NCBI GenBank assembly: GCA_964394855.1
Contig: CAYMZD010000003.1
Location: 22,607 to 86,606, forward strand
Length of the DNA stretch: 64,000 nucleotides
Direction of reading: 5' to 3'
Origin: an uncultured Gammaproteobacteria bacterium
GTDB lineage: Bacteria; Patescibacteriota; Microgenomatia; Daviesbacterales; UBA10151
Below the pieces are notes generated by a model. That model saw nothing but the letters and a program-made list of their open reading frames with translations, was not told where the DNA came from and ran no database searches. The translations under genes and the position numbers were made by a program. Shown piece by piece: positions 29,917-60,039 of this stretch (position 1 is the stretch's first letter; every line of letters begins with the position of its first letter).

Positions 29917-29923
29917 AAGTCTT

Positions 29924-30937
29924 TTAAGTGTACAACAAAGAGTCAATGGTTTGTCTAAAATTTTTAATAAATTTATTCTTACTAAAATTTGTGGCATTTT
30001 CCAGACAATCATTGGGGTTTATTTTAATAGCATGCAACCCCAAAAGAGCCTTTTCCAAACCTTCAACAGTCTGTTCATCAAAAAATGTGCCTGTTTTAAG
30101 CTCAACTACTGTTTCCAATGCACCTCCTTTTTTATAAGCTACCACAGGTTTACCCAGAGCTTGAGCTTCCAAACTGGTTAATCCAAAATCCTCTATCCCT
30201 GGCATGATGAGGGCTCTGCACCCAGCTAAAATATTAACTACCATCTCATCACTCAATCCTCCTGCAATCATTTTAAAGGGAACTCCCATTTTTTTTAAGG
30301 CTTGAGTTGCCAAATCAAATCTTTTATATTTATTTGGCCTGCCTATCATGACAAAATAACCACCATCAAATGTTTCCACACCTTTAAATCTTTCCAGATC
30401 TATAAACGGATAAACCACTTTTGATTCCGTTCCGTAGACCCGCTTGATGCGCCTTCTCGCATTATCTGAACCAGCAATAAAAAAATCTACCCTTTTTGCG
30501 CAAACTTGATCATACAGTCTTAAGTTAGTCATCAAAGCTTCTCCTAAACCATAATTTCCATATCCTGAAAAATGCCACAAAAATCTGGGAGGGGTATGAC
30601 AATAACAAATATGAATTGTCCCGGGTTTGGTAATAATACACTTGGTAAATCTGGTGGTGTGGGAAATTACTAAATCAAACATACTAAAATCAAACTGTTC
30701 AAAAGCAATTGGATAAAAGGGTAACATCATTTTATATAAAGCCTTCCATCCTGGAATTTTTTGTAGAAAAGATGTTATTATTTTTTTCTTGCCAAATCTT
30801 TTTTTAAGCTCCGTATGGTTTTCATCATAAACAGAAGTATAAATCGGCGCATCAGGATAAATCTCACAAAGTCCCTCAAGGACTCTTTCTGCTCCTCCCC
30901 ATTGCACCAAATCATCATGAACAATGGCTACCCGCAT
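29924..30937 (-). CDS. GT4-family glycosyltransferase
   Basis: Start MRVAIVHDDLVQWGGAERVLEGL and a C-terminal GT-B block DFGLTSLEAQALGKPVV (E-x7-E variant). Confidence 0.75.
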   Translation of the reverse strand: MRVAIVHDDLVQWGGAERVLEGLCEIYPDAPIYTSVYDENHTELKKRFGKKKIITSFLQKIPGWKALYKMMLPFYPIAFEQFDFSMFDLVISHTTRFTKCIITKPGTIHICYCHTPPRFLWHFSGYGNYGLGEALMTNLRLYDQVCAKRVDFFIAGSDNARRRIKRVYGTESKVVYPFIDLERFKGVETFDGGYFVMIGRPNKYKRFDLATQALKKMGVPFKMIAGGLSDEMVVNILAGCRALIMPGIEDFGLTSLEAQALGKPVVAYKKGGALETVVELKTGTFFDEQTVEGLEKALLGLHAIKINPNDCLENATNFSKNKFIKNFRQTIDSLLYT

Positions 30938-34086: not shown

Positions 34087-35532
34087 TTATGGCTCTGGAT
34101 CATCTTTACTAAATTCTTTTTTTATTTTTGTTAAATCAACAATTACATAATTTGGAGTTTCCTCTAAAACTGTAAAATGTCTCATGGCCCATTTGGTTTG
34201 ACCATCTTTGGCCACTGACACCAGATGAGTAACACCGAAGTTCGCTACCATCTCGGCGAAGGGGAAAGCAACCACTGGCCAACCCGGTCTATCGATTTGG
34301 TAAAGAAAAGCCGTGTCACCACTGTACGGAGCCACCACCACTGCATTTTGAGGAAGGAGTTGATCCGCCTTTTTCCCTGCCTCAATAATGGGGGGATTAT
34401 TAATTTTGTAAAGTTCCTTAACTTGGGTCCAACTAAAATAAAACATCAGAGAAAAAAATAACACTGCCGAAAAAAAAGACCAAAATCTTGATACAAAATT
34501 AGCACTGCCCTTAATTAGGTAGACAAAACCAATACTGGCAAAGACAGAGGCCACTGGAACAAATATAATCTGATAATAATCATGTCTGACATTGCCTGTG
34601 GCAAAAACCACAAAATATAAAAACATAGCCAAGGCCCAAAGATGAAGAAAAAAATTCCCATCTTTAGGTCTTATTAAAAGACCTAAAAAGAAAAGAAATG
34701 CTCCTGTGACTCCCAATATTTCTCTACCAATCCTCTCGGATATTATCCACCACCAAAAGGCTGGTCTAAAACGGATACCATCTCCATTAAGGAGCCAATT
34801 CGATGCTGGGATGCCCTCTGGAGACTGTAATATCCACAGCCTCCATAAAATAAAGGGTAGTAGTGACAGAAACAAAAAAAGCAAAAGTTTTTTAGAAATT
34901 AATTTACCATTTTTTTTGTAATATACAGCCCCTAGAGGAAGCAGGTAAAAAATAGCCCAAGGCTTTATTAAAAAAGATAAAGCAGTAAAAAATCCTGCCC
35001 ACCACAAAAACTTCCTTCCCTCCCAGATCCAACGATCCACAAAAAAGATCATGCCCAAAGCAAAGAAAACAAATGTTGGCTCTGGCAAAGTGGTTCTGGA
35101 GAAAAAGATGTTGAATGGTAAGAAAGCAAAGACCAAAGCTGCCAAATAGGCCACAGCCACTGACGCATATTTTCTGACTATCAAATATAAAAAAACTAAA
35201 CTACCCACAGAGAAAATAACAGAAACAAGACGATGAAGCCATTCTTGAACACCAAAAACAAGATATAAAGGATAAACTGCTATATTGTAAACTGGAAACT
35301 CCACAAAGCGGTATCTGGCCAGATTGGGGTAGGGAGCTTCTGCCACACCTGATGTGTCATCATATTTGGGCAAAAAAGGATTAAAACCCTCCTTAATAAA
35401 ATTTCTGGTGACGGCTGCCGTATCTGCTTGCCTCCAAGAGTGCCAATCAGCAATTGGGGAATCTATTTTATAAAGCCTGACTAAAAAGGCTAAGATGACA
35501 ATAAGTATTAACCAGGCTTTATTTATTTTCAT
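34087..35532 (-). CDS. Polytopic membrane protein, putative GT-C-type (PMT/ArnT-like) glycosyltransferase
   Basis: About 11-12 TM helices. First loop reads RLYKIDSPIADWHSWRQADTAAVTRNF, a pattern I associate with GT39/ArnT-like annotations. There is a C-terminal soluble domain of about 100 aa. No database confirmation. Confidence 0.45.
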   Translation of the reverse strand: MKINKAWLILIVILAFLVRLYKIDSPIADWHSWRQADTAAVTRNFIKEGFNPFLPKYDDTSGVAEAPYPNLARYRFVEFPVYNIAVYPLYLVFGVQEWLHRLVSVIFSVGSLVFLYLIVRKYASVAVAYLAALVFAFLPFNIFFSRTTLPEPTFVFFALGMIFFVDRWIWEGRKFLWWAGFFTALSFLIKPWAIFYLLPLGAVYYKKNGKLISKKLLLFLFLSLLPFILWRLWILQSPEGIPASNWLLNGDGIRFRPAFWWWIISERIGREILGVTGAFLFFLGLLIRPKDGNFFLHLWALAMFLYFVVFATGNVRHDYYQIIFVPVASVFASIGFVYLIKGSANFVSRFWSFFSAVLFFSLMFYFSWTQVKELYKINNPPIIEAGKKADQLLPQNAVVVAPYSGDTAFLYQIDRPGWPVVAFPFAEMVANFGVTHLVSVAKDGQTKWAMRHFTVLEETPNYVIVDLTKIKKEFSKDDPEP

Positions 35533-36928
35533 TTTTTACCTCTACCATTTTAACTGTTGCCAGAGCGACCCCCAAAGAAAGCCAAAGAAGTTGGGCTATT
35601 TTAGACGATTCTAAAATATCTATTACTAAGGCTGTGACAAGAAGTGATAAAACTCCACTAAAAAGTCCTATGATCACAGTAGCTGGTAAATTTTTGGCGC
35701 TCTTTTTAATAAATCCCCACATTTTTTTCAGTATTAGCCAAAAAACAAGCACTAAAGAGGCTGTCCCCAACAGTCCTGTTTCTCCCAACGAGCGCAAATA
35801 GTCATTGTCTGTGGATATGGTAATTGAAGAGTAACCCGTTCCCAGCAGTGGATTTTTTAACCAAGCTCTGATGGCTCTTGGCCACTCCTCATCTAATCTA
35901 ATACCAAAAGAGCGATAAACTCCCAATTCGGTGGTATTGAGGGGTTCACCCGGAGCCACATCAACCGGTACACCTGCAGGGGTGGCTACTCCGTCGGCAG
36001 CATTCTCAATGGAGAAGGCTTTGGTGGAATTTGGCTTCTGGGGAGGAGGGGTATATTTTGGCCCTCCACCACCTAATAAATTAACCGTTAAGGTAGCCAC
36101 ACTCCTGTGTCTTAGATCAGGAGAAATCACCAGTGCTAAAAGGGATGCCCCCAATAAAATTAAAATTAGTTTTTTTTGTCCCAGCAAGAAAAAGGCCAAG
36201 GATATGCCCAAAATGGCTGCTACAAACGAAGCTCTGGCTGCAGTTAGAGCTAACAACAAAAAACTTAAAGCTCCAGTTAAGCCGATCAAGGCCTTTTTGA
36301 TAATATTTCGCACATACAAAAACATTCCTGCCAATAAAATTAAAACTACTGCCAGATATCCGGCCAAGTCATAATGACCAGCAAAGGTGGAGTTAACTCT
36401 TGCCTCTGGGCTTAAAAATAAAATTAAGCCTTTGGAGAACTCCCTATTGGTAGTGGAAATAACCGGGAAAGATAGCCACTGTTGTCCAAAACCGTAAATT
36501 ACCACCATCAAAGTGGTAAAAAACATTACTTTTAACCAATCTTTTACTTGCGCTAAGGAGGTAAATGCACTGTAAGCTACAAATAAAAGAATCATTGATT
36601 CCACTCGCCTAAGATAGTGTAATAATCCCAGATGGGGGGAAACTGTTTGGGTCAGAAATATGGCCGAAAAAAGACTCAAGCCACCAATTACCCAAAATAA
36701 AGCTACTACCTGGAATAAATTGCTAGATAAAAAGCTTTTTAAATTTGGTAAAATTGCCAAAAACCACCATAAAACCACCACAGCAATTAAAAAATCTTCT
36801 AACCGAATAGCCACATATGTTCCCGGAACATTAAATAAGGGGAATTTTGGGTAAAGTGGTATAAAGATAGAAAGACCCAAAACTGCCCAAAAAAGATATT
36901 TTTTACAAATTAAAGATAACTTCAACAT
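35519..36928 (-). CDS. O-antigen ligase/polymerase-like (Wzy_C/WaaL-like) membrane protein
   Basis: About 10-12 TM helices. It has a large Pro-rich external loop (GGGGPKYTPPPQKPNSTKAFSIENAADGVATPAGVPVDVAPGEP) followed by LTAARASFVAAILGISLAFFLLGQKK, which is typical of the Wzy_C region. Confidence 0.5.
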   Translation of the reverse strand: MLKLSLICKKYLFWAVLGLSIFIPLYPKFPLFNVPGTYVAIRLEDFLIAVVVLWWFLAILPNLKSFLSSNLFQVVALFWVIGGLSLFSAIFLTQTVSPHLGLLHYLRRVESMILLFVAYSAFTSLAQVKDWLKVMFFTTLMVVIYGFGQQWLSFPVISTTNREFSKGLILFLSPEARVNSTFAGHYDLAGYLAVVLILLAGMFLYVRNIIKKALIGLTGALSFLLLALTAARASFVAAILGISLAFFLLGQKKLILILLGASLLALVISPDLRHRSVATLTVNLLGGGGPKYTPPPQKPNSTKAFSIENAADGVATPAGVPVDVAPGEPLNTTELGVYRSFGIRLDEEWPRAIRAWLKNPLLGTGYSSITISTDNDYLRSLGETGLLGTASLVLVFWLILKKMWGFIKKSAKNLPATVIIGLFSGVLSLLVTALVIDILESSKIAQLLWLSLGVALATVKMVEVKNENK

Positions 36929-37784
36929 AAGTTTTGGAAAAATTTAATTTGCCAAAAATGGCAAAGAAAAAAATACGCAAAATTGTAGAGATATAAATTA
37001 ATATTCTCACCATCAATGCTACTTGGTTACCAAACTGTTTTTTATAAAAATAAATTAGTCCTTTATATTCGCCGCTCCACTGTCTTAATTTTGGCTTATC
37101 CAAACTTCCTCCCGACAGGTGTTTGATAGAAACTGTGGGATTTAACATCACTTTAAAACCTCCCTTTTTAGCCCTGTAACAAAACTGTGCATCTTCAAAG
37201 TACATAAAATACCCCTCATCAAAAAACCCCACCTTGGAAAAAACCTTATTTTTAATAAACATAAAATTGCCTGATACCCAGCCAACCTCATGCACTTTGT
37301 CATAGTAGTGGGCATCATTTCTGTGGAAAGATGTACCAATACCTAAACTTTCTAAATTAAAAAGCCAGCTAAAAAGTGCCAGACCAAAAGGTAAATCTCC
37401 ACCGTTGGGTTGCAGCTTTCCATCAAATCCCCAAACTTTACAACTGGAAATACCACAACTGGGATTTTGCTTCATAAATTCCACCATTTCATCAATGACC
37501 CCATCTGAAAGTAGTGTATCAGAGTTGAGAATCAAACAAAAATCACTTTCACTTTGTCTTAATACCAAATTATGTCCGGCAGCAAAACCAATATTTTTTT
37601 TATTCTCTATTAATTTAACCTGGGGAAATTCTTTTTTTATTAGTCTCGCAGAACCATCCATCGAGCCATTATCCACCACCCAAACTACTATCTCATTTTG
37701 CCATTTTTTGTTCAAAATACTCCTCAAGCAATTCTTAGTTAAATCTTTAGTATTATAGTTAACTACTGATACAGTGACACTCAT
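36903..37784 (-). CDS. GT2-family glycosyltransferase
   Basis: VSVVNYNTKDL, VVDNGSMDGS, NIGFAAGHN, ILNSDT and FEDAQFCYR form the canonical GT2 motif set. Confidence 0.8.
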   Translation of the reverse strand: MSVTVSVVNYNTKDLTKNCLRSILNKKWQNEIVVWVVDNGSMDGSARLIKKEFPQVKLIENKKNIGFAAGHNLVLRQSESDFCLILNSDTLLSDGVIDEMVEFMKQNPSCGISSCKVWGFDGKLQPNGGDLPFGLALFSWLFNLESLGIGTSFHRNDAHYYDKVHEVGWVSGNFMFIKNKVFSKVGFFDEGYFMYFEDAQFCYRAKKGGFKVMLNPTVSIKHLSGGSLDKPKLRQWSGEYKGLIYFYKKQFGNQVALMVRILIYISTILRIFFFAIFGKLNFSKTYVEVIFNL

Positions 37785-38353
37785 TTCGCTCTTTCTTGCA
37801 AAATATTCTTAAAAATCAAATACAGGGCAGCCAGAGCTAACCAAATGCCTAAATAAACAATCAAAGCAGCAAAGATACTGGCTGGATATAAACGTAAAAT
37901 AGTTTTGGAAACAAAATACTGCCCATTAATATGTATGTGGTCACCGATAAAAGTATGGTTTCTTTTCAAAATCTCATTATCAATATACGGCTCATAGCCA
38001 GCCACGAAAATGGAACCCTTTAAGGGATAGACATATTCTTCCAAAAAGGTCACATAAAGTTGGTCTCGCAGGTATGTATAAGCATATTTAGGAGGATAAT
38101 TTAAAGTCGCTGGTGGAAATAGAAAACCCCAAAAAAATTTTTCTTGCATTTTTTGACGATAAAATTCACCAATACCTTTTCTATCAAATTGGGAAAAGTA
38201 AGCCGCAATATTGGGGACTTGATAGGTATCTCCTGGCTCGTTTGATTTTAACGAGTTGGGTAGGGGTGGAAAATCATTAACTGATGAAGGAGTAGGTGCC
38301 AGAATATACAAAAGTCCTATTATAAAAATTATGATAAGAGTGATTTTAATCAT
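37781..38353 (-). CDS. Hypothetical bitopic membrane protein (N- and C-terminal TM)
   Basis: TM helices at both ends and an aromatic-rich roughly 130-aa middle domain. No recognisable motifs. It overlaps its neighbours by 1-4 nt, which fits co-translation. Confidence 0.4.
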   Translation of the reverse strand: MIKITLIIIFIIGLLYILAPTPSSVNDFPPLPNSLKSNEPGDTYQVPNIAAYFSQFDRKGIGEFYRQKMQEKFFWGFLFPPATLNYPPKYAYTYLRDQLYVTFLEEYVYPLKGSIFVAGYEPYIDNEILKRNHTFIGDHIHINGQYFVSKTILRLYPASIFAALIVYLGIWLALAALYLIFKNILQERAK

Positions 38354-38955
38354 TACTGAAATAGTCTGGCTCTACCTATTTTGTAGTGAGGATCTTTAAG
38401 TCTTCTTTCCCCAATTATTTGAGCTGGCACACCCCCCACAATGGCAAATTCAGGCACATCTTTGGTGACAACTGCTCCGGCAGCTATGACAGCTCCTTTG
38501 CCAATTTTAACACCCGGTAAAATTATCACTCTTGGTCCGAGAAAGACATAATCTCCAATCTCCACCGGCTCTAAAATGGGGTGAAAATCTTCGGCAGTTA
38601 TATCATGCTCACTATTGTAAATTAAAACTTGCGAGGCAATATCTACATGTGAACCAATCAAAAGTTTATCTCTCCCATCAAAAAAACAGTCATTGCCAAT
38701 GACGCAGTCTTCGCCAATGCGGACATTTTTCAGAGAATAAAACCGCAAACCAACATGGATACTTGAACCCTTGCCAATCTTAGCCCTGGCCAATCTATAA
38801 ATTAAACGTCTAACATGATGAGAAGGAATAAGTGAACCTACATAGGCTAGATAAAGACCAAAATCAGCCAAATAATTATAAAGTCTATTAAAAACTTTGG
38901 CCAAAACCTGATCATAAGTCAAAGATTTTCCCATTCGGTCACGAAAAATGCTCAT
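38353..38955 (-). CDS. Hexapeptide-repeat (left-handed beta-helix) sugar O-acetyltransferase
   Basis: Repeated [LIV]G-x-x-x-x blocks: [70 protein letters not shown]. The family is NodL/LacA/WbbJ-like. Confidence 0.8.
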
Positions 38956-40114
38956 TGGTTACCTCCTCTAGAAGAGTCAAGGTTTTCCTGGTACACTCCT
39001 CCCAGGAAAAGTCTTTGACCCTATTTAATCCTAATTGTACCCTTTTTTGACGCAAGTTTTCATCTTTTAGTAAAGATTCCACACCCTTTTTAATACTCTC
39101 CACTGAATATGGATCCACTAAAATCCCTGCTTCTCCTGCTACTTCTGGAAGTGAGGAAACATTAGAAACAACCACACTTGTTCCGCAAGCCATAGCTTCC
39201 AAAACTGGGATGCCAAAACCTTCCCAAAGTGATGGTAAAACAAACATTGCCGAAGCAGATAAAAGTATGGGGAGTTCTTCTGTTGGCACAAAACCGGTAA
39301 AGATCACTTTATTTTCTATCCCCAAACTTTTGGGGGTTTCCAGAATATCCTGATACATCCAGCCTTGTTTACCAGGACCTGTAGTTTTTCCCACAATTAC
39401 TAGCTGCAATCTATCCTGATCTTCTGACTTAACAAGTTTAGCAAATGCTTCCATCAACCTGATAAGATTTTTTCTTGGCTGGATAGTACCAATAAAAATA
39501 ATGTAAGGGGATTTAATATGGTATTTATGTAACACCTTTTGTATCTTATTTTTATCTTTAACAGGTTTAAAAATATCCTTGTCATATCCTAGGGGAGTTA
39601 CTGCTATTTTGTCAGGATTCACTTGATAATTTTGGACAATATCTTGTTTAGTAAACTCGGAAATAGCCAATATTTTGTTACTATTTTTTATTGAATACTG
39701 TGTCCAAAGTTTAAGTTGCCAAAGATCTCTTGATTTAAACATTTCCGGAAAATGTAGGTAAGATAAATCAAAAATAGTACAAACTTTTCTCACCGGAGAA
39801 AATCTGGGTATATAGTGGGTCGGTGAGAAAAAAACCTCCGGTTTTTCCTTAGCTAAATGTAAAGCTAGGGGAATTGCCAACCAAGTTTTCAATTTATTAG
39901 GTTTTAAAATTCTATATCTCCAACCAAGTCTTGTCTTAGGCAAATCAGGAAGGGGTTGGTGGGGGAGTAATATGGTATATTCATTTTTTTGATCTATCCT
40001 TTCCAGATTTCTTAAAATTTCAAAAGCATACTGTCCTGAACCAACTCGATTAGCTACATTTGCCTCATATCCATCAATCCAAATTTTCTTTAAGCCGTTT
40101 CTACCATTTTTCAT
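38939..40114 (-). CDS. GT4-family glycosyltransferase
   Basis: [18 protein letters not shown] (E-x7-E) and a GT-B fold N-terminal half. Confidence 0.8.
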
Positions 40115-40127
40115 ATTTCACCACCTC

Positions 40128-41153
40128 CTATTGTTTACTATCATATAATTGTTTATAAATTTTAAATGTCTCTTCTGCACATTTTTTCCAGGAAAATTTT
40201 TTGGCTTGTACAAATCCCCTCTTAATCATTCTTTTTCTTTTTTGCTCATCTTCCATCACCTGCCTTAATTTATTTTCAATATCCAAAACAGACTCCGGAT
40301 TAACATATTCTGCCGCATCTCCACCCACCTCCGGCATAGAAGAAACACTTGAGCTAATAACCGGCACTCCACAGGCCATAGCCTCTAAAATTGGCAAACC
40401 AAATCCTTCATAAAATGAAGGGTAAAGTAAAACTTTGGCCCCGCCATATAAAAGGGGTAGCTCCTCTGATGAAATCCAGGGAGTAGTCTCTCCGGTAATT
40501 ACTAAATTATAATTTTTAGCTGCCTCTTTCACCCTTTTTAAATTCCTTCTCTCCCCTACCCCACCAATAGCTAAAATATAATCATCTGGAAGTTGATACT
40601 TTCTTTTAAATTCCTCCACTTTATCGGCAGATTGAGGTTTAAAATTATCGGACACTCCCTCATAAATTACTGTAATTTTTTCTCTGGGAATCTGCGAAAT
40701 CTCCAGTAAATCTTTTTTGGTACTTTGGGAAACCGCAATTACTATGTCCACCTCCCTCTCCACCAGCGCCAGACGCCTTTTGTGAACTTCCACAATTTTA
40801 TGATGTGACCACTTCGGAAATTTTAAAGGGATCACATCATGATAAGTTGTTATTTTTTTAGCTTTCGAGGGAGGCTGGGTCCAATCAGAGGAGTGAAAAA
40901 CATCCACCTCTCCAATAAAATTATCTATCCCAAACATTCTCCATCTATTAAATAAAATTTCCAGCAAAGTTGGAGGGATGGGGAATGATTTTACCTTTGG
41001 TAAGTTTCCATGATATGATTTTCGCAAAGATGAATAAAAAAAGATTACTTCTAAATCTTTAATTTTTAAAAGCTCTTCTGCTAAATTTAAAGTATAATTG
41101 GCCACTCCCCCAGGATGAGCAATTTGGGAAATATCAAGGCATGCTTTGATCAT
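40128..41153 (-). CDS. GT4-family glycosyltransferase
   Basis: [18 protein letters not shown] (E-x7-E). Start trimmed to MIKACLD, because the track start overlaps the upstream gene. Confidence 0.75.
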
Positions 41154-41172
41154 AAATAAATTGTAGCAGGTT

Positions 41173-42558
41173 CTATAACTTACTGTATTGGTGGACAAAA
41201 CCTACTCCATGAAAATTAAAAGTTTCAATTTTTCGATAACCTAAATTATCTAATTTTTTCTTAAGTAACCTATCTGGATCTGTTATATCTACCAGATATT
41301 CAAACAGAAAAACTTCCTTTGCAGCAATACTATTTATATCATTTAAGGTTTTGGCTGGAATTTTTTTAAGCCCTGGTTGGACATTTAGTGCTTTTTGCGA
41401 ATAGTATAGATATGGAGAAAAAACTCCATTACTTTCTAAAAGAATTACTGACTGCTCATCCGCCATCTCTTCCACCCGATTCACAGCTCCTTTCCAATCC
41501 TCTCTTTGAAATTTAGGATTTATAAAGTAGGCAGCAAGACTTATTAGACTTATTAGACAAATTAAACTGATGATCGGAAAAATTATCTTCCCAGGTAGCG
41601 AAAAAACTCCTTTAGCCAACAACAGATAAAGGGGGGGTAAAATAAAAATCATTCTAAAATAAGCTAAAACAGGAATATAAAAAGAAATTAAAAATGCCAA
41701 CCCTAGTGGCAAAATTAACCACAAAAGTAGTAATTTTATAGCGTTTTCTAATTTTCTTATGCCTATCCAGAGGGCCAATCCATAAATAATTCCCACCAGG
41801 AAAATTAACCCAGCATAAATCATCTTGTTATCAATGCTCACCCTGCCAAAGAAAGTCTTTATGGGAATTAAAAGTAGCTGTTTTAAATTTGCTCCTCCTA
41901 CCACAGAAGCCCATCCTGGAAGTGAAGTTGCCGCCCCAGTACCTGATATAAGCTGTCTAGGAAAAACAAAAAGCCAGGGAATGAAAAATGTGAAACTTGT
42001 AGCCAATAAAAAACCGACTTTTGTAAAAAGTTTGTCTTTAGTCCAAATTATAAAAACAAGTTGTGCCGGAAAAATTAAATATGGTAAATAATCAGAATAT
42101 AAAACTAAAACATTAGCCAAAATATATCCCGGCCAAATTCTTTTGAATAAAAAATAAAAAGATAAGGTAGCAGCAAAAGTGGCTAAAGAATACATTCTGG
42201 CCTCTTGTGAATAATAAATATGAAGAGGCGCCAGGGCCATAAAAAGTGACGCCAAAGTAGCAATCTTTTTATTAAATAATTCTTTGCCCAAAAGATATAC
42301 CAACCAAACAGTAGCCACTCCTAAAACTAGCGAAGGAATCCTCACCCATACTTCCCCCACTCCACCCAATTTTATCCATATCCAAAGTAAGGCAAAATAT
42401 GCCGGTGGATGAAAATCTCCAATCGGGTATTTAGTCACAAAATCCCAAAATGTTAAATTTTTGGCAGAAACTATATTAATGGCCTCATCTAACCACAAAG
42501 ACTGATCCAGTTTAATCAGTCTTAGTATTACAGATAAAAATAAAATTCCATGGATCAT
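41173..42558 (-). CDS. GT-C-type membrane glycosyltransferase, PMT_2/ArnT-like (GT39/GT83-like)
   Basis: The first periplasmic loop carries LWLDEA (DE motif), followed by LAPLHIYYSQEARMY, which resembles the PMT/ArnT family. About 12 TM helices. Confidence 0.7.
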   Translation of the reverse strand: MIHGILFLSVILRLIKLDQSLWLDEAINIVSAKNLTFWDFVTKYPIGDFHPPAYFALLWIWIKLGGVGEVWVRIPSLVLGVATVWLVYLLGKELFNKKIATLASLFMALAPLHIYYSQEARMYSLATFAATLSFYFLFKRIWPGYILANVLVLYSDYLPYLIFPAQLVFIIWTKDKLFTKVGFLLATSFTFFIPWLFVFPRQLISGTGAATSLPGWASVVGGANLKQLLLIPIKTFFGRVSIDNKMIYAGLIFLVGIIYGLALWIGIRKLENAIKLLLLWLILPLGLAFLISFYIPVLAYFRMIFILPPLYLLLAKGVFSLPGKIIFPIISLICLISLISLAAYFINPKFQREDWKGAVNRVEEMADEQSVILLESNGVFSPYLYYSQKALNVQPGLKKIPAKTLNDINSIAAKEVFLFEYLVDITDPDRLLKKKLDNLGYRKIETFNFHGVGFVHQYSKL

Positions 42559-42561
42559 AAT

Positions 42562-43395
42562 CTACTTATAGGGTTGCTCCCCCAAAAATGAACCAATTAG
42601 AGAAATTTCAACTGCCAGATCATAAACTATCTTAAAAATTAAAAATTGCGGGAGCTTGTACTTGATTGCTTTGATACTTCCATGTATTAGAGAAAAAGGC
42701 AGGGAATACCTTATTAAGGCTATCCACCTCATGATCCATTCCCGTCTTATTTTCCTTCTTTTAAATTCTGACTTTCCCACCCATCTGGCCTGCTTAAAAA
42801 TTTCCCATAAATTTTCCGGATTTCTATGGTAAAATTTGGCACCCAGAGCAACAGTTGCTAAACTGTCCAGCTTTTCCGATAAAGTATAGTCATCAACATA
42901 ACCAATGGGAGAAAATCCTCCCACTTTATCAAATTCCCTTTTTAAAATGGCCCGAAAAACTGGTTGTTTATCCGGATAATTTTTTCCATGCATTCTATCC
43001 CAAGGTAAACCTTTATTAATATTCCAACACTTGCTCCAAACATTATCTTTGTTTAAAACATACTCTTCTTTGGAAAAAGTACCAATGGTTTTGCCTTCAC
43101 GAATTGGTTGAGTTAATTTTTCGATGAAATGGGAATCAAAAGTCATATCCGCATCTACAAAAACCACAATTTCACCGCTAGCCTGTTTTACTCCCAAGTT
43201 CCTTGCCACTCCAGGACCTTTATGAGTTTGTTTAAGTAGTTGAAGACCCTTAACTTTTTCGATAGTTTTATCAGTAGAACCATCATCAACAACAATTACT
43301 TCTATATCTTTGTAGCTTTGGTTTTCCAAAGACTCAAGACACTGCCCAATTACTTTTTCCTCATTATACGCAGGAATAATTATGGAAACTTTCAT
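42562..43395 (-). CDS. GT2 polyprenol-phosphate sugar synthase-like (DPM1/GtrB-like) with a C-terminal membrane anchor
   Basis: MKVSIIIPAYNEEKVIGQCL, VIVVDDGSTDKT, VFVDADM (DxD), and a C-terminal hydrophobic/amphipathic segment. It sits directly downstream of the PMT/ArnT-like GT-C. Confidence 0.65.
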   Translation of the reverse strand: MKVSIIIPAYNEEKVIGQCLESLENQSYKDIEVIVVDDGSTDKTIEKVKGLQLLKQTHKGPGVARNLGVKQASGEIVVFVDADMTFDSHFIEKLTQPIREGKTIGTFSKEEYVLNKDNVWSKCWNINKGLPWDRMHGKNYPDKQPVFRAILKREFDKVGGFSPIGYVDDYTLSEKLDSLATVALGAKFYHRNPENLWEIFKQARWVGKSEFKRRKIRREWIMRWIALIRYSLPFSLIHGSIKAIKYKLPQFLIFKIVYDLAVEISLIGSFLGEQPYK

Positions 43396-44345
43396 TTAAA
43401 TATTTCCTCGAATAATTTTTGATATTTTTCTGCCACTTTATCCCAGGAGAAATTTTCCGCTTGTTTTCTTGGTAAATCATCCCAGTTTTTGGACAGCGTT
43501 TCCTTAATGGCCATGGCATATTTTTCTGAATTAGCAACATCAGTTAAGATTCCACTGTTGCCTACTATTTCTCTTCTGGGAGGATCATCCGGCGCTACAA
43601 CAGGCAATCCTGATGCCATGGCTTCCACATAAACTATGCCAAATGACTCCCTGTCCCAGCTAGGTAAAACGAACAAATCAGCGCTTCTGTAAATTTGTGG
43701 TAAGTCATTATACCCGGCAGATATTATTTGTAATCTGTTAGGAATTTTTTTCTCTCCCAGTTGAAGCAGTTTCTCTTTTTCTTCTCCTTCACCTACTATA
43801 ACCAATGAACCACTTACAAACTCCATGGCGTTAATTGTCCGCTCATGATACTTGTACCAGACCAGCGCCCCTACACTTAAGATAATTGGTCTGGGTAAGC
43901 GTAAATCCATTTTCTTCCCTTCTGGTTTAAATTTTTCCAAATCAACTCCATTGGGAATTTTTACTATTTTTGTTTTCCAAGCCCATTTTTTAGCCCACTC
44001 GGCCTCAAAATCTGTCAAGGCCACATAAACTTGAGGGGTAGTAATAGCTATATTCCAGATATCATCTTTGCCTGGACCAGCTTGTCCAGAAATTAAAGTT
44101 TTATATCCTTTAAATACTCTCCCCAGACTTACCTTTAGAGCTTGTAAGCGCCCATTGGTAGGAATTATTAAATCATATTCTCCATTAAGCATTCGGGAAA
44201 AAGAATCTGCCTGATTACCAACAATAATATCAACATCATGGGTTTTGCCTAATCTCTTGGAGAGCTCCTCTACATAAGTTTCAACTCCTCTGCTGACACT
44301 TTTTTGTAATCTTGATAAAAAAGCAATTTTCAATTTTTTTGCCAT
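43392..44345 (-). CDS. GT4-family glycosyltransferase
   Basis: ESFGIVYVEAMASGLPVV (E-x7-E). Confidence 0.7.
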   Translation of the reverse strand: MAKKLKIAFLSRLQKSVSRGVETYVEELSKRLGKTHDVDIIVGNQADSFSRMLNGEYDLIIPTNGRLQALKVSLGRVFKGYKTLISGQAGPGKDDIWNIAITTPQVYVALTDFEAEWAKKWAWKTKIVKIPNGVDLEKFKPEGKKMDLRLPRPIILSVGALVWYKYHERTINAMEFVSGSLVIVGEGEEKEKLLQLGEKKIPNRLQIISAGYNDLPQIYRSADLFVLPSWDRESFGIVYVEAMASGLPVVAPDDPPRREIVGNSGILTDVANSEKYAMAIKETLSKNWDDLPRKQAENFSWDKVAEKYQKLFEEIFK

Positions 44346-45682
44346 ACCTGAATTCCCCCTCTAATACTACCTACAATATGATAATTTTGTTTTATATAAT
44401 CAGTCACCTGTTGAGGTTGGTAAGTTCCTAATTCAAACCATTGACCTTTTTGCGGGGGTAACACAAAAATATACATTATTTCTTTTTCTTTTAAACCATT
44501 TATCAACTTTTCCTGCATTCCTTCAATTTCCATATACCAGACATAATTATCTATCCATGGTTTGGGCGGCAAAGTGGCAGTTAAAACATACTGTGTGGAG
44601 GAGATTCCCAAAAGATAAGTATAATCTTGAGGTCTTAAATATTTTTTTAAGTCACTGGTAAGCGCTAAATCACTTAATCCATAAAATCGAGGAGAAAGAT
44701 TTACAGTTGGCATTGCCCAAGTTAGCGAAAAAAGGAGAAAAATTATTATTGGTGTAAAAAGAATAAACTTAATCTTAGTCTGCTTTAAAAGAATTACCAG
44801 TAAAACAAAATAAACTGCCATAGCTGGCTGCAACCTAAAAAAAGCAAATCTGGGAAAGGCTGTAATAAAAAGCGCGATAAATGTTAAAAAAGTTAACCTC
44901 TCACCAAGATCCAATTTATTAAAATACTTCAAAGCCAACAATACACCGGGTGTAAATAAAAAGAATGTGGCTAATGCTTCCTTCATTGTTGGCAAACTGG
45001 AATATCCAGGAAATCGAGGATACCAAACAGCAGGAACTGTCACTGTCCAAAACAAAAAGTCATCCCAAATATTTTGGGAAAAAATATATGCTAAAACCCC
45101 CAAGGCAGGTATTGATGTCCCCAGCATTAGTAAAAAAATATTTTTCCATTCTTTAGTCATTAATAAATAAGCAGTTACGGGCAGAAAAGCTACTGCCACT
45201 TGTTGTTTTACTAAAGAAGCCATCATTAAAAAAAATCCAATTAAGAAAAATTTTTTCCAACCATTAAAATAAATCAATGCTACCAGGACTATCAAAATAA
45301 AAGGAGTGGTGGCCAAATCAAACCAGAGCATATTGCCTTCTGAAACCGATTGTACTAATACATAAAAAACAACAGGTAAGCAAGCTAGTAGTTTTTTACC
45401 TAAAATCTTTAAGGAAATTAAAAATATCAAAAAATCACAAAATAAAATTATTGTCCAAGTAAAAATCTGCAGAGTTTGCAAGCTATATCCAAACAAATTA
45501 TAAATGGATGATAGTATCAATACTAAAATGGGAACATAAGGCAAGGCTATATCTTTATAAATATCAAAACCATTATTTAGTAGGTAAGGGTAAGAGGTCA
45601 TTTCCGGCCAAGCCGTAAATTGAAGATTGACTAAAATTATTAAATGGATTATTAAAGTTCCAACAAATAAAATTATGAGCAC
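44330..45682 (-). CDS. Polytopic membrane protein of unknown function, possibly a polymerase or GT-C-like
   Basis: About 12 TM helices and an aromatic-rich C-terminal region. No diagnostic motif recognised. Confidence 0.35.
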   Translation of the reverse strand: MLIILFVGTLIIHLIILVNLQFTAWPEMTSYPYLLNNGFDIYKDIALPYVPILVLILSSIYNLFGYSLQTLQIFTWTIILFCDFLIFLISLKILGKKLLACLPVVFYVLVQSVSEGNMLWFDLATTPFILIVLVALIYFNGWKKFFLIGFFLMMASLVKQQVAVAFLPVTAYLLMTKEWKNIFLLMLGTSIPALGVLAYIFSQNIWDDFLFWTVTVPAVWYPRFPGYSSLPTMKEALATFFLFTPGVLLALKYFNKLDLGERLTFLTFIALFITAFPRFAFFRLQPAMAVYFVLLVILLKQTKIKFILFTPIIIFLLFSLTWAMPTVNLSPRFYGLSDLALTSDLKKYLRPQDYTYLLGISSTQYVLTATLPPKPWIDNYVWYMEIEGMQEKLINGLKEKEIMYIFVLPPQKGQWFELGTYQPQQVTDYIKQNYHIVGSIRGGIQVWQKN

Positions 45683-45694: not shown

Positions 45695-46486
45695 TCAAAC
45701 AGAACTAAAATAACCTAATTCTTGCCCTGCAATCTCTAAAGGCTCTGGATAATCTTCTAGATAATGATGCCTGGTATACCTAGTGAAGATTTTACGATAG
45801 GCTTCCAATAATCTATATAGATGTAATCTTGGGTAATAATCATCAGGCTCTTCTTTAAAACTTCTGGTCCATCCCCAATGAACATCTGCGAGATATTTCT
45901 CACCGTGTGGCATTACTGAAAAATATGCCAAATCATCAACGGGATCACCAAATAAAAACTGATTAAAATCTGCAAGCCCAGAAAATTTTCCTTTATCCAC
46001 ATAAATACTGCCCAAATGGATATTTCCATTCAAAAATTTTGCCGGAGCGGAATCGAATAAACTTCGGTTTTGCTGCATAATTCTTAAAACTCTTGATCTA
46101 GCATCAAGTAATTGCTCCAGCAATTCTCTGTTGTGTGGAGAAAGTGGTGTTTGACTAACTCCAGTCTTCTTCTCCTGGATTAAGGTCAGATGCATTTCAT
46201 CAGATAATGAATTAAAAAATTCCAGCCAAAAATCGTAGAAACTTCTATGTTGGCCCTTTAATATTCCAGTTGAATTAAACAATACTCCGTTTGCCCAACC
46301 ATAACCTTCACGCGGAATGGAGTGGAGTCTACCTAAAAATTTACCTAAGTCTTCCATGATTCCTCGGGTAGTGATTTCATCTAAAGACAACTCTTCCAGC
46401 GGTTTACCACTTGGGGGGAATGGACGGGCTATAAAACGAGCAATCTCTCCTCGAAGTTTCATCTCATCAAACTGGGGTTTTTCCAT
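45695..46486 (-). CDS. APH/choline-kinase-like phosphotransferase fold protein with a degenerate catalytic loop
   Basis: FLNGNIHLGSIYVD aligns with the HGDxxxxN catalytic loop but reads NGN. LADFNQFLFGDPVDDLAYF aligns with the DFE...GDPxxDLA region. N-lobe motifs are not obvious. Confidence 0.45.
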   Translation of the reverse strand: MEKPQFDEMKLRGEIARFIARPFPPSGKPLEELSLDEITTRGIMEDLGKFLGRLHSIPREGYGWANGVLFNSTGILKGQHRSFYDFWLEFFNSLSDEMHLTLIQEKKTGVSQTPLSPHNRELLEQLLDARSRVLRIMQQNRSLFDSAPAKFLNGNIHLGSIYVDKGKFSGLADFNQFLFGDPVDDLAYFSVMPHGEKYLADVHWGWTRSFKEEPDDYYPRLHLYRLLEAYRKIFTRYTRHHYLEDYPEPLEIAGQELGYFSSV

Positions 46487-46496: not shown

Positions 46497-47252
46497 TTAC
46501 ATCTTTTTAGCTATAATCATCAAATCAGAACCTAACCCCAGTTTGGTTAATATCCATGAAGGTAAGGCAGTGGCGACTTCCATAAAAAATCTTTTTTTAA
46601 AAGTTAAAAGTGACAAAATTATTCCCCCTATGGGATTTTCATAATCCCACACTCCAGAAGCTTTTTCGCTAAATTTTATTTTAAATCCTAATTTCTTTAA
46701 CAGAATTTCCAAAGATTTTTCTGTAAAATGCCAGAGATGTTCTTGAGGTAACAAAAGCGGCCAGTTTTTGCCCATTAATTTTGCCGAGAAGCCTCCAAAA
46801 TTGGGCACATCAATATAAAGTAATCCGCCGGGGTAGAGTAAACTTTTTACTTTTTTTATAACTTCCATAGGATTTTCCAAATGTTCCAAAGTATGATTTA
46901 AAATCACTAAATCAAATTTTCCGTCGATTTTAACCTGCATAAAATCCCTAACTAAAACTTGAATTCCTCTTTTTTTTGCAATTTCTGCTGCTTTAGTAGA
47001 AATTTCTATGCCTTCAACTTGCCATCCTCTTTTTTTAAGAAGGGCTAATATGACCCCGGTTGAACACCCTATTTCCAAAACCTTCCCGGGTTTAGTAAGT
47101 TTTGAGATAATATTCACTCTTTTTAAAAAAATATTTTGGAATAGATTTTCTGCTTTAATGTATGCTTCATCACGATAATATCCCCCTTTTTGACTACCTA
47201 AATCTTTGGTCATCCCCAAACCGCAATGTGGGCATTGATAAATATCCATCAT
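46497..47252 (-). CDS. Class I SAM-dependent methyltransferase with an N-terminal Cys-x2-Cys zinc-ribbon
   Basis: CPHCG, VLEIGCSTGVILALLKKRGWQVEGIEIS (motif I), and a DVPNF-type motif later. Start trimmed to MMDIYQ, because the track start overlaps the upstream gene by 85 nt. Confidence 0.75.
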   Translation of the reverse strand: MMDIYQCPHCGLGMTKDLGSQKGGYYRDEAYIKAENLFQNIFLKRVNIISKLTKPGKVLEIGCSTGVILALLKKRGWQVEGIEISTKAAEIAKKRGIQVLVRDFMQVKIDGKFDLVILNHTLEHLENPMEVIKKVKSLLYPGGLLYIDVPNFGGFSAKLMGKNWPLLLPQEHLWHFTEKSLEILLKKLGFKIKFSEKASGVWDYENPIGGIILSLLTFKKRFFMEVATALPSWILTKLGLGSDLMIIAKKM

Positions 47253-48070
47253 TTTATTAATCTCCTTTTGATTTTCTTTAGTGGGGTTTCCATAGCAGCT
47301 CGCGTTTTGTATAAAAAATCCGCTTTTTGCCAAGGTGAGGGAACAATTTTCGGCCTCTTAAGATAAAGTACTGATGGATATTTAAAATCTTTGGGGAAAG
47401 GTATTCCTAGCTCGTATTTGAACCTCATAATACGCTCCACCACTTGAGCATCTTTACTTGAGCGCCGAAGATGAGATGCATGTAAATATGGGGCATCTAC
47501 CACAGCTACCTCGTGAGGATCTCTTTCGTAAATTAATTTACCTTGCTTGTCAAAAAATCCTTCTCTTAAAAAACCTTGAGGATTAGGATGCACTTCTACA
47601 TGAAGTCCGGGGATATTTCTTTTAAAAACCCGCAAATTATAATGACCCACCCTTCCAGCTATGTGGTAGTCCCCTGCTATTTCTTCTTGATAGTGGTAAA
47701 CATCACCTAAAAGCATCAGAACGGGAACCACTATACATTCGGCTTTAGTTTTTTGAAGCTTCTGCCTTATTTTTTTTATTGAGCTATCCAACCAGATCTC
47801 ATCCCCATCCAAAAGCAACACCCAGTCAGATCTTGTTTCTTTAAGCATTTGCTGCCTTAGGTTGGCATGAGTAACCATTTCCGTATTGGCTGGAAACTGT
47901 CGCAAAACTATTTTGGGAGATTTAATAGTCTTAATAATCTCAACCGTCTGATCGGTTGATCCCAAATCATAAATTAAAATTTTATCCACAAAGTCTATTA
48001 CACTCATCAAAACAAACCAGATAAAATTCTCTTCGTTTCTCACAACCGTATTAGCCCAGACTGTTTTCAT
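47249..48070 (-). CDS. GT2-like glycosyltransferase (DxD = DGDE)
   Basis: TVVRNEENFIWFVLMSVIDFVDKILIYDLGSTDQT and LLLDGDEIW. Confidence 0.55.
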   Translation of the reverse strand: MKTVWANTVVRNEENFIWFVLMSVIDFVDKILIYDLGSTDQTVEIIKTIKSPKIVLRQFPANTEMVTHANLRQQMLKETRSDWVLLLDGDEIWLDSSIKKIRQKLQKTKAECIVVPVLMLLGDVYHYQEEIAGDYHIAGRVGHYNLRVFKRNIPGLHVEVHPNPQGFLREGFFDKQGKLIYERDPHEVAVVDAPYLHASHLRRSSKDAQVVERIMRFKYELGIPFPKDFKYPSVLYLKRPKIVPSPWQKADFLYKTRAAMETPLKKIKRRLIK

Positions 48071-49299
48071 GCTTTTTTGAATTTATAAATCATCCAAATT
48101 ACAGAAGATACTAAGCTAAAAATTTGCGATACCAAAACCGCTAAAGCTACCCCCATCATACCTAATCGTAAAATTAAGAAATATCCCAAAAAGGCTAAAA
48201 TTAAAAGTTGTCCCAGCGAGATAAAGACAAAAACTTTTGGTTTGGCAAAATAATAAAAAATGGCCTGATGTGCGGGAGTGGCCATGAGAAAAATGAGCTG
48301 GCTTAAGAAAAGTATGGCAAATATATTAATACTTTCCCCAAAAGCCTGACCATAAAAAAACGGGATGGCAAAATGGGCAAGAGGTATTCCCAGAAGTCCC
48401 AACAGAGCCAGTCCTACACTCAAAAGCTGCAGTCGTTTTAAATAATTTAAGATTTCCTGTTTATCTTTAGCTGCAGATAGTTTAGGAGCTATTACCGTGG
48501 CCAAAGCAGCCACTAGTTGTGGGACTACCATAGTTAGCTGGTTAGCAGCAGAATAAATTCCTAAGGAAGAGGCGGAAACTAGACGAGCCAACAAAAAGGT
48601 ATCCAGACGAGAACTAACTGCCGATATAAGCGAAGTCGAAGCAACCCATTTGTTGTAGTGGAAAAAGTCTACCGCCACACTATTTTCGTCTTTGACTACC
48701 ATGAAGCGAGGTAAGAATAAAAGCCCCAGAAAAAAACCCAAAAAGGGGATGATAATATAAGCCAAAAGTACGCTCTCCACAGTAAATACAGCAAGAATTA
48801 AAACTAAAATTAACCGCAATCCATTTAAACCAATGTTTAAAAGACTCCAAATTACATAATGCTGCATGGCTTGTAAACTGTGGGAAACAAAAGAAAAAAG
48901 TAATGCTCCGCCTACACCAATGAGGGATAACCTTAAAGGTAACTCTAACTCAACTTTTCCAAACACAAAAGAAGAAATAAAGGGCATTAATAACCATCCT
49001 ACACCCAAGATAATTACCCAAACGGCTAATTTTATTTTGAGACCCAATTTCATAAATCTTAAAGCTTTATCTTGATCTGCATTGATATATCTACCAACGA
49101 AGCGAATTAAACCTGTATCTGTCCCCAAATCAGCGATATCGGCAATTAGAGTAAGTGTCGTAATGGCCAAGGTTAATATACCGAAACTAGCCGGACCTAA
49201 AAACCTGGCAACCAGAATATAAAATAAAAGCCCTAATAGACCATTTAAAAAAGTCCCCAAAAATGTAATGCCTGTTTGGCCTAAAGTTTTTGCAAACAT
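48067..49299 (-). CDS. Wzx-type (MOP superfamily) polysaccharide flippase
   Basis: About 12 TM helices. N-terminus MFAKTLGQTGITFLGTFLNGLLGLLFYILVARFLGPASFGILTLAITTL is typical of PF01943 flippases. Confidence 0.75.
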   Translation of the reverse strand: MFAKTLGQTGITFLGTFLNGLLGLLFYILVARFLGPASFGILTLAITTLTLIADIADLGTDTGLIRFVGRYINADQDKALRFMKLGLKIKLAVWVIILGVGWLLMPFISSFVFGKVELELPLRLSLIGVGGALLFSFVSHSLQAMQHYVIWSLLNIGLNGLRLILVLILAVFTVESVLLAYIIIPFLGFFLGLLFLPRFMVVKDENSVAVDFFHYNKWVASTSLISAVSSRLDTFLLARLVSASSLGIYSAANQLTMVVPQLVAALATVIAPKLSAAKDKQEILNYLKRLQLLSVGLALLGLLGIPLAHFAIPFFYGQAFGESINIFAILFLSQLIFLMATPAHQAIFYYFAKPKVFVFISLGQLLILAFLGYFLILRLGMMGVALAVLVSQIFSLVSSVIWMIYKFKKA

Positions 49300-60033: not shown

Positions 60034-60039
60034 ATAGAA

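Follow-up and report, generated by a model that had tools for sequence, protein, structure and literature searches.

The GT2 glycosyltransferase encoded at 42562-43395 of the window (the 64,000-nucleotide stretch of DNA that was analysed) is best explained as a peripheral-membrane enzyme that extends an undecaprenyl-diphosphate-linked glycan in a Wzx/Wzy-type operon, with the neighbouring GT-C protein acting outside after the glycan is flipped. A probability of about 0.55 was assigned to this reading. From the folds, motifs, conservation and synteny of the two proteins we infer what their acceptors and donors may be, how the GT2 would associate with the membrane and which enzyme would feed the GT-C. 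In the proposed mechanism, both genes would be translationally coupled members of an envelope-glycan operon conserved in Microgenomates (CPR). The GT2 would be an inverting GT-A enzyme held at the cytoplasmic face by basic, amphipathic C-terminal helices. It would add one or a few beta-linked sugars onto a sugar hydroxyl of an undecaprenyl-diphosphate-linked oligosaccharide, which a Bac_transf enzyme would prime and nearby GT4 and GT2 enzymes would assemble.

Gene order and conservation

An earlier note on this DNA had placed two adjacent reading frames in 41173-43395, and both were recovered as real genes at exactly the expected positions, 41173-42558 and 42562-43395. The first encodes a GT-C fold glycosyltransferase of 461 residues (PMT_2, GT39/GT83-like) and the second a GT2 family glycosyltransferase of 277 residues with a GT-A core and three C-terminal helices. 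Because both are on the minus strand, the GT2 gene is 5' (upstream) of the GT-C gene, and not downstream of it as had been claimed. The junction, read directly, is ...TAT AAG TAG att ATG ATC..., so that a 3-nt spacer (42559-42561, minus strand) separates the GT2 stop codon (TAG) from the GT-C start codon (ATG). This spacer and a G-rich GGGGGAG within the GT2 3' end, ahead of the GT-C start, suggest that the two genes may be translationally coupled.

The conserved block in which the pair lies is entirely on the minus strand. Its first gene (44330-45682), placed by synteny, encodes a polytopic membrane protein of 450 residues with no family match in Pfam or NCBIfam; compared by hhalign as a possible GT-C relative, it showed no similarity to the GT-C family profile. 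It is followed by a GT4 glycosyltransferase gene (43392-44345; Pfam, junction sequence and synteny), a conserved neighbour whose stop codon overlaps the GT2 start as ATGA. Downstream of the GT-C is another conserved GT4 gene (40128-41198; Pfam and synteny), the actual start of which is probably near 41153, since homologues align only from residue ~12-17. Pfam/NCBIfam matches and synteny identified a further GT4 (38939-40114), a hexapeptide acyltransferase (38353-38955), a hypothetical protein (37781-38353), a rhamnosyltransferase-like GT2 (36903-37784) and a Wzy_C/O-antigen-ligase-like protein (35519-36928). The block of GT2, GT4 and GT-C genes adjoins the dcw cell-division cluster and lies directly upstream of it.

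The wider cluster contains a Bac_transf phosphoglycosyltransferase as its priming enzyme (29281-30012, minus strand; PF02397, E 5e-60), a Wzx-type flippase (Polysacc_synt; 48067-49299, minus strand; PF01943, E 6e-23), the Wzy-like protein, four GT4s and several GT2s. The arrangement is an ordinary polysaccharide operon, and the probable product of the block is a major glycan or glycoconjugate of the Microgenomates envelope. The order of about ten genes (polytopic protein, GT4, GT2, GT-C, GT4, GT4, acyltransferase, hypothetical, GT2, Wzy-like) is kept in Daviesbacteria, Curtissbacteria and Woesebacteria.

Co-occurrence of the GT2 and GT-C genes across genomes held up well. The GT-C was downstream of the GT2 in 31 of 33 Microgenomates species loci and adjacent at a gap of <=86 nt in 28 of the 33, and the stop and start codons of the two genes often overlap in homologous loci. 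Such adjacency, together with the 3-nt spacer in the window, favors the model of the earlier note, in which a divergent GT2 with no or few transmembrane (TM) helices makes a polyprenol-phosphate monosaccharide that the GT-C uses outside. We consider this model unlikely. The GT4-GT2 and GT-C-GT4 adjacencies on either side are equally conserved, and the GT2-GT-C adjacency therefore gives no reason to set these two apart as a two-component pair. A GT2+PMT_2 Rosetta-stone fusion (P0284, a 50%-cluster representative of 699 residues) was dropped as evidence; it is probably an indel artefact because on the same contig, L059, the C-terminus of a GT-C is frameshifted and a GT4 gene is split. Fusions would in any case not be peculiar to the GT-C, since one of GT4 with GT2 (P0266) is known as well.

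Across classes, the identity of the GT2 is 50-69% as against 32-57% for the GT-C. The unusually strong conservation of the GT2 could also reflect a small acceptor that does not vary, for example a lipid phosphate, and on this point it favors a polyprenol-phosphate sugar and counts against the glycan-extending reading.

The catalytic domain of the GT2

The 277-residue protein matches Pfam Glycos_transf_2 (E 3e-33), and an AF2 model (pLDDT 91) and structure comparison confirmed the GT-A fold. The motifs are D37-D38, D81-x-D83, D168-D169 (the candidate general base), H190-x-N-P and Q202-x-R204-W205; helices at 219-229, 232-245 and 250-271 follow the core. The DxD of the GT-A core that had been reported is present as D81-A-D83 and is invariant, but since the motif and the fold are common to all GT2 enzymes they do not discriminate members of the polyprenol-phosphate glycosyltransferases (Pren-P GTs). 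D168-D169 is invariant in close homologues, while in 62 distant relatives D169 is found in 57, D/E168 likewise in 57 and W205 in 61. The Q-x-R-W motif has one residue fewer than the canonical Q-x-x-R-W and is variable, with Q in 29 of the 62 and R or K at position 204 in 40. The glycan-extending mechanism would have D81-x-D83 with a metal, plus R204, hold the nucleotide sugar, D168/D169 act as general base and W205 serve as a stacking platform. The best named NCBIfam family, TIGR04283 (arsenosugar/MftF-like), does not include the protein, which scored 92 bits against a cut-off of 182.

The DPM1/GtrB architecture attributed to the GT2 was not borne out, because Pren-P GT profiles cover only its first ~100-165 residues. 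Matches to the NCBIfam profiles for ArnC, PpgS, Dol-P-hexose and AglJ were confined to residues ~2-107, and in hhalign and hmmsearch ArnC covered 2-120, GtrB 1-101 and the Pren-P GT of the same genome 2-160. No full catalytic-domain homology including beta5-JM1 and beta7-A-loop-JM2 was seen in the profile alignments. As a control on coverage, the 244-residue GT2 at the window end aligned at 8-224 (AglJ), 13-229 (Dol-P-hexose) and 9-201 (PpgS). E. coli PgaC, in turn, was aligned by hhalign, hmmsearch and BLASTP through GT2 residue ~204-220. In hhalign the match spanned residues 2-206 with a probability of 99.1% and included PExL…KQ(x)xRW; the PgaC/GT2 alignment pairs NPENLWEIFKQ-ARW with MPETLKGLWKQRLRW, with a one-residue gap. 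The earlier note had named two observations that would refute its model, a missing membrane anchor and a grouping apart from polyprenol-phosphate sugar synthases. Judged by topology prediction and profile coverage, essentially both apply, with the ArnC, GtrB, PpgS and Dol-P-hexose profiles stopping at ~120 where PgaC continues to ~206.

Raw similarity does not separate PgaC from the Pren-P GT of the same genome. The Daviesbacterial Pren-P GT scored 60-63 bits (158-173 columns) and PgaC 62-73 bits, so that the case was built on alignment coverage and specific residues instead. These raw scores count against the glycan-extending reading, as does tblastn, in which the protein was the best ArnC/GtrB match among the complete GT2s of the window. 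Furthermore, the hhalign match to the in-genome Pren-P GT runs through a JM1-like helix to residue 160 at 31% identity, which favors a polyprenol-phosphate sugar synthase.

The acceptor-phosphate triad of Pren-P GTs is R117/R131/S135 in PfDPMS and R128/R137/S141 in ArnC (PMC5526996; bioRxiv 10.1101/2025.01.29.634835). In hhalign, which is a sequence alignment only, ArnC R128 aligns to S108 of the GT2, a position at which 62 relatives have S, H, T or N but in no case R, and this argues against synthesis of a polyprenol-phosphate sugar. ArnC R137 aligns to K/R122, basic in 45 of the 62, which points the other way; ArnC S141 has no conserved counterpart in the same alignment. The spacing of R204-x-x-G207-x-S209 matches the R-x-x-G-x-S-K loop of Pren-P GTs and, like K/R122 and the short, variable Q-x-R-W, weighs against the glycan-extending reading; R204 is preceded by a 12-residue helix, NPENLWEIFKQA, that aligns with the Q-x-x-R-W helix of PgaC. 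Pren-P GTs need no general base because the acceptor phosphate is already activated (PMC5526996). Judged from sequence and secondary-structure register, D168/D169 would be at the base position of WrtF D167 and TarP D181, and the conservation of this Asp and of W205 is a further point against a Pren-P GT.

The closest structures were WrtF, PcManGT, TarP, CgT and K4CP, with DPMS, GtrB and ArnC ranked 19-29; the Foldseek top 50 gave the same closest set and no Pren-P GT. Both profiles and structures of Pren-P GTs match only the nucleotide-binding half.

The possibility was considered that a 'split' processive synthase akin to PgaC, HAS or cellulose synthase has the GT2 as its catalytic module and would make and export a homopolymer with the protein of 44330-45682 or the GT-C as membrane partner. 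PgaC is the best profile-to-sequence match across the catalytic domain, Q-x-R-W included, the alignments with hyaluronan and cellulose synthases extend over 222-224 residues, and a conserved polytopic protein of no known family is encoded two genes upstream. However, the GT2 itself has no TM channel, its Q-x-R-W is one residue short and partly conserved, BcsA aligns over the N-terminal 92 columns only, the top structural neighbours are non-channel enzymes and no earlier example turned up of a GT-C or comparable partner serving as synthase channel. Such a synthase is very unlikely.

A weak match to PF13506 (GT21, Glyco_transf_21) was also found in the GT2 and in several homologues. It lends something to the split synthase and also to another reading, in which the acceptor of the GT2 would be some membrane lipid that is not a polyprenol phosphate, and its product a glycolipid anchor or primer that the rest of the operon elaborates. 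Lipid glycosyltransferases of the Q-x-x-R-W type include the GT21 ceramide glucosyltransferase and MGlcDAG synthases. The peripheral, basic and amphipathic C-terminus and the very high conservation, suggestive of an invariant acceptor, would fit this too. Nevertheless, the GT21 match is below threshold (17.9 vs 21.7 bits), the Bac_transf enzyme of the operon already supplies a lipid-linked primer and the closest structures use glycan or teichoic acid acceptors, so that a glycolipid product seems highly doubtful.

Probable membrane association of the GT2 and proposed donor of the GT-C

The C-terminal TM helices of Pren-P GTs are not needed for catalysis and vary in number, with two in GtrB and ArnC, four in PfDPMS and one in yeast DPM1. 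The C-terminal membrane segment that the earlier note described in the GT2 proved marginal at best. The Kyte-Doolittle 19-residue maximum was 1.63, at residues 251-271, which contain invariant K255 and E263 and near-invariant D259, and the best 19-mer had a summed Hessa insertion energy of +6.8 kcal/mol (family median +6.3). The same script gave two helices at -2 to 0 in each of E. coli ArnC and GtrB, and at least four in PgaC. On these two scales no convincing TM helix was predicted, N- or C-terminal; since the Hessa sum is conservative, recovering only 4 of the many helices of the GT-C, this indicates that there is no independent ArnC/GtrB-like anchor and is not proof of solubility. The C-terminus is basic and amphipathic, and the GT2 is most likely peripheral on the cytoplasmic membrane face via its C-terminal helices. 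A truly hydrophobic C-terminal helix occurs in 7 of 63 relatives, in keeping with a polyprenol-phosphate sugar synthase, and missing TM helices are not disqualifying for a Pren-P GT because PfDPMS can do without its TM domain (PMC5526996).

The 461-residue protein matches Pfam PMT_2 (E 9e-11) and has a polytopic GT-C fold, the first extracytoplasmic loop of which carries an acidic catalytic motif. The LWLDEA and YYSQEARMY motifs noted earlier are present as SLWLDEA at residues 20-26 and YYSQEARMY at 115-123 and vary little or not at all among 35 homologues; D24-E25 within the loop is invariant in all 35. The C-terminal region (residues ~355-461) forms a small alpha/beta domain. PDB sequence searches with the protein and its family profile found nothing, and its structural match to Pmt4 and ArnT came from the fold search only. 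The structural neighbours include users of Pren-P-monosaccharides (PMT, ALG12, ArnT) as well as of Pren-PP-oligosaccharides (AglB, STT3). In the preferred glycan-extending reading, the GT-C would work on the outer face after flipping with its D24-E25 loop and a lipid-linked donor.

This donor would come more plausibly from another enzyme than from the adjacent GT2. A second DPM1-like GT2 fragment had been pointed out at the window end (63717-64000, minus strand), and its translation is the C-terminal 93 residues of a 244-residue Pren-P GT (DPM1/AglJ/PpgS-like), with the DPM1-class motif EVPVRYGARTGKSK in 63717-63998. The complete gene was recovered from the same assembly (L053:5270-6004), and its product matches the profiles for AglJ, Dol-P-hexose transferase, PpgS and ArnC over the full length. 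Going by sequence, it is a likelier lipid-sugar donor synthase for the region than the 277-residue GT2, and its presence elsewhere in the cluster as a canonical Pren-P GT speaks against that role for the latter. The lipid-linked donor is thus probably made by the 244-residue enzyme, whereas the role of the adjacent GT2 is probably confined to glycan extension. The GT2 at 2-880 (minus strand), which runs off the window start, was rejected as GtrB-like; instead of a Pren-P GT it proved to be a rhamnosyltransferase-like protein that carries an EDxD motif.

CPR/Patescibacteria are ultrasmall episymbionts, the surface chemistry of which is, to our knowledge, scarcely known. Correct enzyme roles are needed for reconstructing the envelope-glycan pathway of Microgenomates, and GT2-GT-C adjacency alone is insufficient to infer a donor/transferase pair. 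Were the minimal, TM-less and Microgenomates-specific GT2, with its synthase-like general-base Asp and Q-x-R-W, the physical and functional partner of the coupled GT-C, there would be a new relay, either with a GT2 outside the DPM1 class making the lipid-linked saccharide for the GT-C or with a GT2:GT-C complex coupling cytoplasmic synthesis to extracytoplasmic transfer; we regard this as quite unlikely.

Comparison with known systems

Known Pren-P GT/GT-C partner pairs are ArnC/ArnT, GtrB/GtrC and CsbB/YfhO, and PMT is also a GT-C partner. Like Pren-P GTs, the GT2 is a GT-A enzyme with DAD whose gene is beside a GT-C gene, and it has a helix at the JM1 position and a basic residue aligned to ArnC R137. 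Unlike them, its homology ends at ~100-165, it lacks the first phosphate-binding Arg, a clear counterpart of the EVP-x-x-x-x-R-x-x-G-x-SK strand-loop and predicted TM helices, it has a candidate general-base Asp and W205, and Pren-P GTs have a lower structural rank. Three-component systems consist of a GT2, a GtrA/GtcA flippase and a GT-C; a small GtrA-type flippase was not found in the conserved block, and the GtrA family had no match among the block ORFs or other scanned window ORFs (>=120 aa), a point against the making of a polyprenol-phosphate sugar here, although the genome could carry such a flippase gene at another place.

PgaC, HAS and cellulose synthase carry D, D, D and Q-x-x-R-W, of which D, DxD, D and W are conserved in the GT2, although it differs from PgaC, HAS and BcsA in lacking a TM channel and in its shorter motif. 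PcManGT, a membrane mannosyltransferase of Pyrobaculum calidifontis (PDB 6YV7), reportedly has what its depositors describe as a minimal cellulose-synthase-like fold. It is likewise a small synthase-related GT2, with a lipid-linked glycan as its substrate at the membrane, but has true TM helices, none of which are predicted in the GT2, and is 22% identical.

WrtF, the O-polysaccharide fucosyltransferase of Rhizobium tropici (PDB 9OMH), is a GT2 of 279 residues in which a GT-A domain is followed by a C-terminal helical domain and, at the terminus, an amphipathic membrane helix, and in which D167 is the general base (PMC12595478). The 277-residue protein has the same layout, with D168/D169 at what would be the equivalent position. 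In contrast, identity is ~20%, the GT-A core alone aligns (184 residues), the C-terminal domains are unrelated, WrtF is metal-independent with GAD where the GT2 has DAD, and no Q-x-R-W segment has been reported in WrtF. TarP, TarS, CgT/GalT1 and the K4CP domains are further related single-domain, glycan-extending GT2s near the protein.

The gene pair and its conserved neighbourhood

The 41173-43395 region was found to contain two complete ORFs, as the earlier note had claimed, a 277-aa GT2 (42562-43395; Pfam Glycos_transf_2, E 3e-33) and a 461-aa GT-C protein (41173-42558; Pfam PMT_2, E 9e-11). Both lie on the minus strand, which puts the GT2 gene upstream of the GT-C gene, the reverse of the order first described. 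The sequence across their junction, TAT AAG TAG att ATG ATC, leaves a spacer of 3 nt, and the GT2 start is overlapped by the stop of the preceding GT4 gene as ATGA. The motifs attributed to the pair, LWLDEA (residues 21-26) and YYSQEARMY (residues 115-123) in the GT-C and D81-A-D83 in the GT2, were present and invariant or nearly so in homologue alignments, with D24-E25 in the first GT-C loop invariant. The 461-aa protein is a bona fide GT-C enzyme, a fold that by itself fails to separate a Pren-P-monosaccharide donor from a Pren-PP-oligosaccharide donor.

A synteny scan using one genome per species identified 33 loci with a GT2 orthologue in Daviesbacteria, Curtissbacteria, Woesebacteria and other Microgenomates. 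A GT-C orthologue was located downstream on the same strand in 31 of the 33, and the distance was no more than 86 nt in 28, where the stop of one gene often overlaps the start of the next. Three loci had one inserted gene, and the two most divergent GT2s had no GT-C nearby. The adjacency proposed earlier was thus upheld, but not a specific two-component pairing. The whole gene order (polytopic protein, GT4, GT2, GT-C, GT4, GT4, hexapeptide acyltransferase, hypothetical, GT2, Wzy-like) was kept to a similar degree, and therefore the adjacency represents a conserved operon. No GtrA-type flippase was present among the ORFs scanned.

One homologue, P0284 (related locus L059:3001-7420), appeared to fuse GT2 and GT-C. 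It was discounted because on its contig the reading frame shifts before the GT-C carboxyl end and a GT4 gene is broken into two pieces; instead of a genuine fusion, these defects suggest indel errors or pseudogenes. Identical and related proteins belong to Candidatus Daviesbacteria (Microgenomates, CPR). Many MAG records with this Microgenomates-specific block are titled 'uncultured Gammaproteobacteria bacterium' (loci L003, L004, L007, L012, L013, L019, L022 and others) and one, L034, 'Candidatus Woesearchaeota archaeon'; these assemblies look mislabelled or misbinned.

Relation of the GT2 to polyprenol-phosphate glycosyltransferases

The structure papers on PfDPMS and ArnC describe polyprenol-phosphate glycosyltransferases (Pren-P GTs) as having a GT-A domain with a DXD motif, two juxtamembrane helices, a variable TM domain, phosphate-binding residues (PfDPMS R117/R131/S135, equivalent to ArnC R128/R137/S141) and an A-loop Arg. 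No general base is needed because the phosphate acceptor is pre-activated. The GT2 had been assigned a DPM1/GtrB architecture. However, only its residues ~2-107 were covered by the corresponding NCBIfam models, those of ArnC, PpgS, Dol-P-hexose transferase and AglJ, and matches in PDB sequence searches were confined to the first ~100-125 residues. Using hhalign, hmmsearch and BLASTP, the alignment ended at residue 120 for E. coli ArnC and residue 101 for GtrB, and extended to residue 160-167 for the in-genome Pren-P GT. E. coli PgaC aligned across residues 2-206 (hhalign probability 99.1%), with NPENLWEIFKQ-ARW opposite MPETLKGLWKQRLRW.

The in-genome Pren-P GT, a 244-aa GT2 whose carboxyl end lies at 63717-63998, served as a positive control. 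Its complete sequence, recovered from the same assembly (contig L053:5270-6004), matched the profiles of AglJ, Dol-P-hexose transferase and PpgS along its whole length; therefore the method does recognise a Pren-P GT where one is present.

Key residues were compared in 62 relatives at 36-54% identity. The position of S108, opposite ArnC R128, holds Ser, His, Thr or Asn, with Arg in none of them. K/R122, opposite ArnC R137, is mostly basic. W205 is kept in 61 of the 62; in synthase-type GT2s such as BcsA, the Trp that directly follows the diphosphate-binding Arg forms the platform for the acceptor sugar. D169 and D/E168 are each kept in 57/62, and inverting GT-A enzymes with hydroxyl acceptors, such as WrtF (D167) and TarP (D181), use an Asp here as their general base.

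The possibility was considered that the GT2 makes the lipid-linked sugar used by the adjoining GT-C. In favour of this are the unusual conservation of the GT2, its standing as the closest to ArnC among the window's complete GT2s, and a raw similarity as high to the in-genome Pren-P GT as to PgaC. Given the early end of the Pren-P profiles, the missing Arg and the retention of both the candidate general-base Asp and W205, this role is improbable. A split synthase or a lipid glycosyltransferase is a minor possibility.

Membrane attachment of the GT2

The only hydrophobic stretch of the GT2, residues 251-271 (KD 1.63), includes three charged residues, K255 and E263 (both invariant) and D259 (near-invariant). 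On the Hessa scale, a conservative one, it sums to +6.8 kcal/mol, compared with -2 to 0 for the pair of TM helices in each of E. coli ArnC and GtrB, and the C-terminal membrane segment claimed for it is marginal. The C-terminal helix is charged and amphipathic in most relatives and strongly hydrophobic in 7 of 63 50%-cluster representatives (P0316, P0322, P0323 and others; Hessa sum ≤1, down to -5.9). Members of the family appear to differ in how they attach to the membrane. The family is probably membrane-associated, though in this clade without an independent TM anchor.

The glycan cluster and the likely source of lipid-linked donors

A dcw cell-division and peptidoglycan cluster (MraZ, MraW, a PBP, Mur ligases, MraY, FtsW, MurG, FtsQ, FtsA and FtsZ) occupies ~6-24 kb of the window, and a very large glycan cluster (~27-64 kb) lies directly upstream on the same strand. 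Their extents are 6368-24320 (mraZ to ftsZ) and 27443-64000; two FtsW/RodA paralogues occur at 6368-7444 and 14830-16008. The glycan cluster encodes a Bac_transf priming phosphoglycosyltransferase (29281-30012), a DUF4012 protein, a Wzy_C-like protein (35519-36928), a Wzx-type flippase (48067-49299), many GT4 and GT2 enzymes, a hexapeptide acyltransferase, several methyltransferases and at least five PMT_2 GT-C proteins (starts 34087, 41173, 51917(+), 53957 and 58009(+)). The stretch 34087-60033 has an unusual concentration of GT-C-type and large polytopic proteins. Large membrane proteins start at 44330 (no Pfam family), 49315 (859 aa, no Pfam family, a weak MmpA-like match) and 55415 (863 aa, with an F5/8 type C (discoidin) domain). 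The cluster also includes an APH-family phosphotransferase-like protein (45695-46486), a kinase-like gene absent from all related loci examined, and a SAM methyltransferase (46497-47333). At the other end of the window, a rhamnosyltransferase-like GT2 running off the start (2-880, minus), a 617-aa two-domain GT2 (877-2730) and an ABC-2 transporter pair (2709-4314) look like a second, ABC-transporter-dependent glycan pathway.

The most economical reading of the whole pathway, to which we give a little better than even odds (about 0.55), is that the GT2 is a glycan extender and that the GT-C enzymes obtain lipid-linked donors from the 244-aa Pren-P GT. The Bac_transf enzyme would prime an Und-PP-linked oligosaccharide, which the GT2 and other cytoplasmic-face enzymes would lengthen. 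Wzx would then flip it, the Wzy-like protein would handle the flipped product, and GT-C enzymes would decorate or transfer the glycan on the outer face, their donors coming more plausibly from the canonical Pren-P GT.

The latter, which is TM-less, heads a module (58009-64000) reminiscent of the arn operon. The module comprises an SDR epimerase/dehydratase (62728-63720), a PLP-dependent Orn/DAP/Arg-type decarboxylase (61425-62690), a methyltransferase (60668-61456), an NAD-binding protein (60040-60675, plus) and a 674-aa PMT_2 GT-C (58009-60033, plus, opposite to the Pren-P GT). The module may both synthesise a modified lipid-linked sugar and put it to use. A literature search found no paper describing the subfamily of the 277-aa GT2, which is uncharacterised. 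In overall plan this GT2 is like WrtF, a 279-aa GT-A followed by a helical domain and a terminal amphipathic membrane helix. The GT2 and GT-C each add a new member to a known family, and the polysaccharide-operon arrangement that holds them is ordinary.
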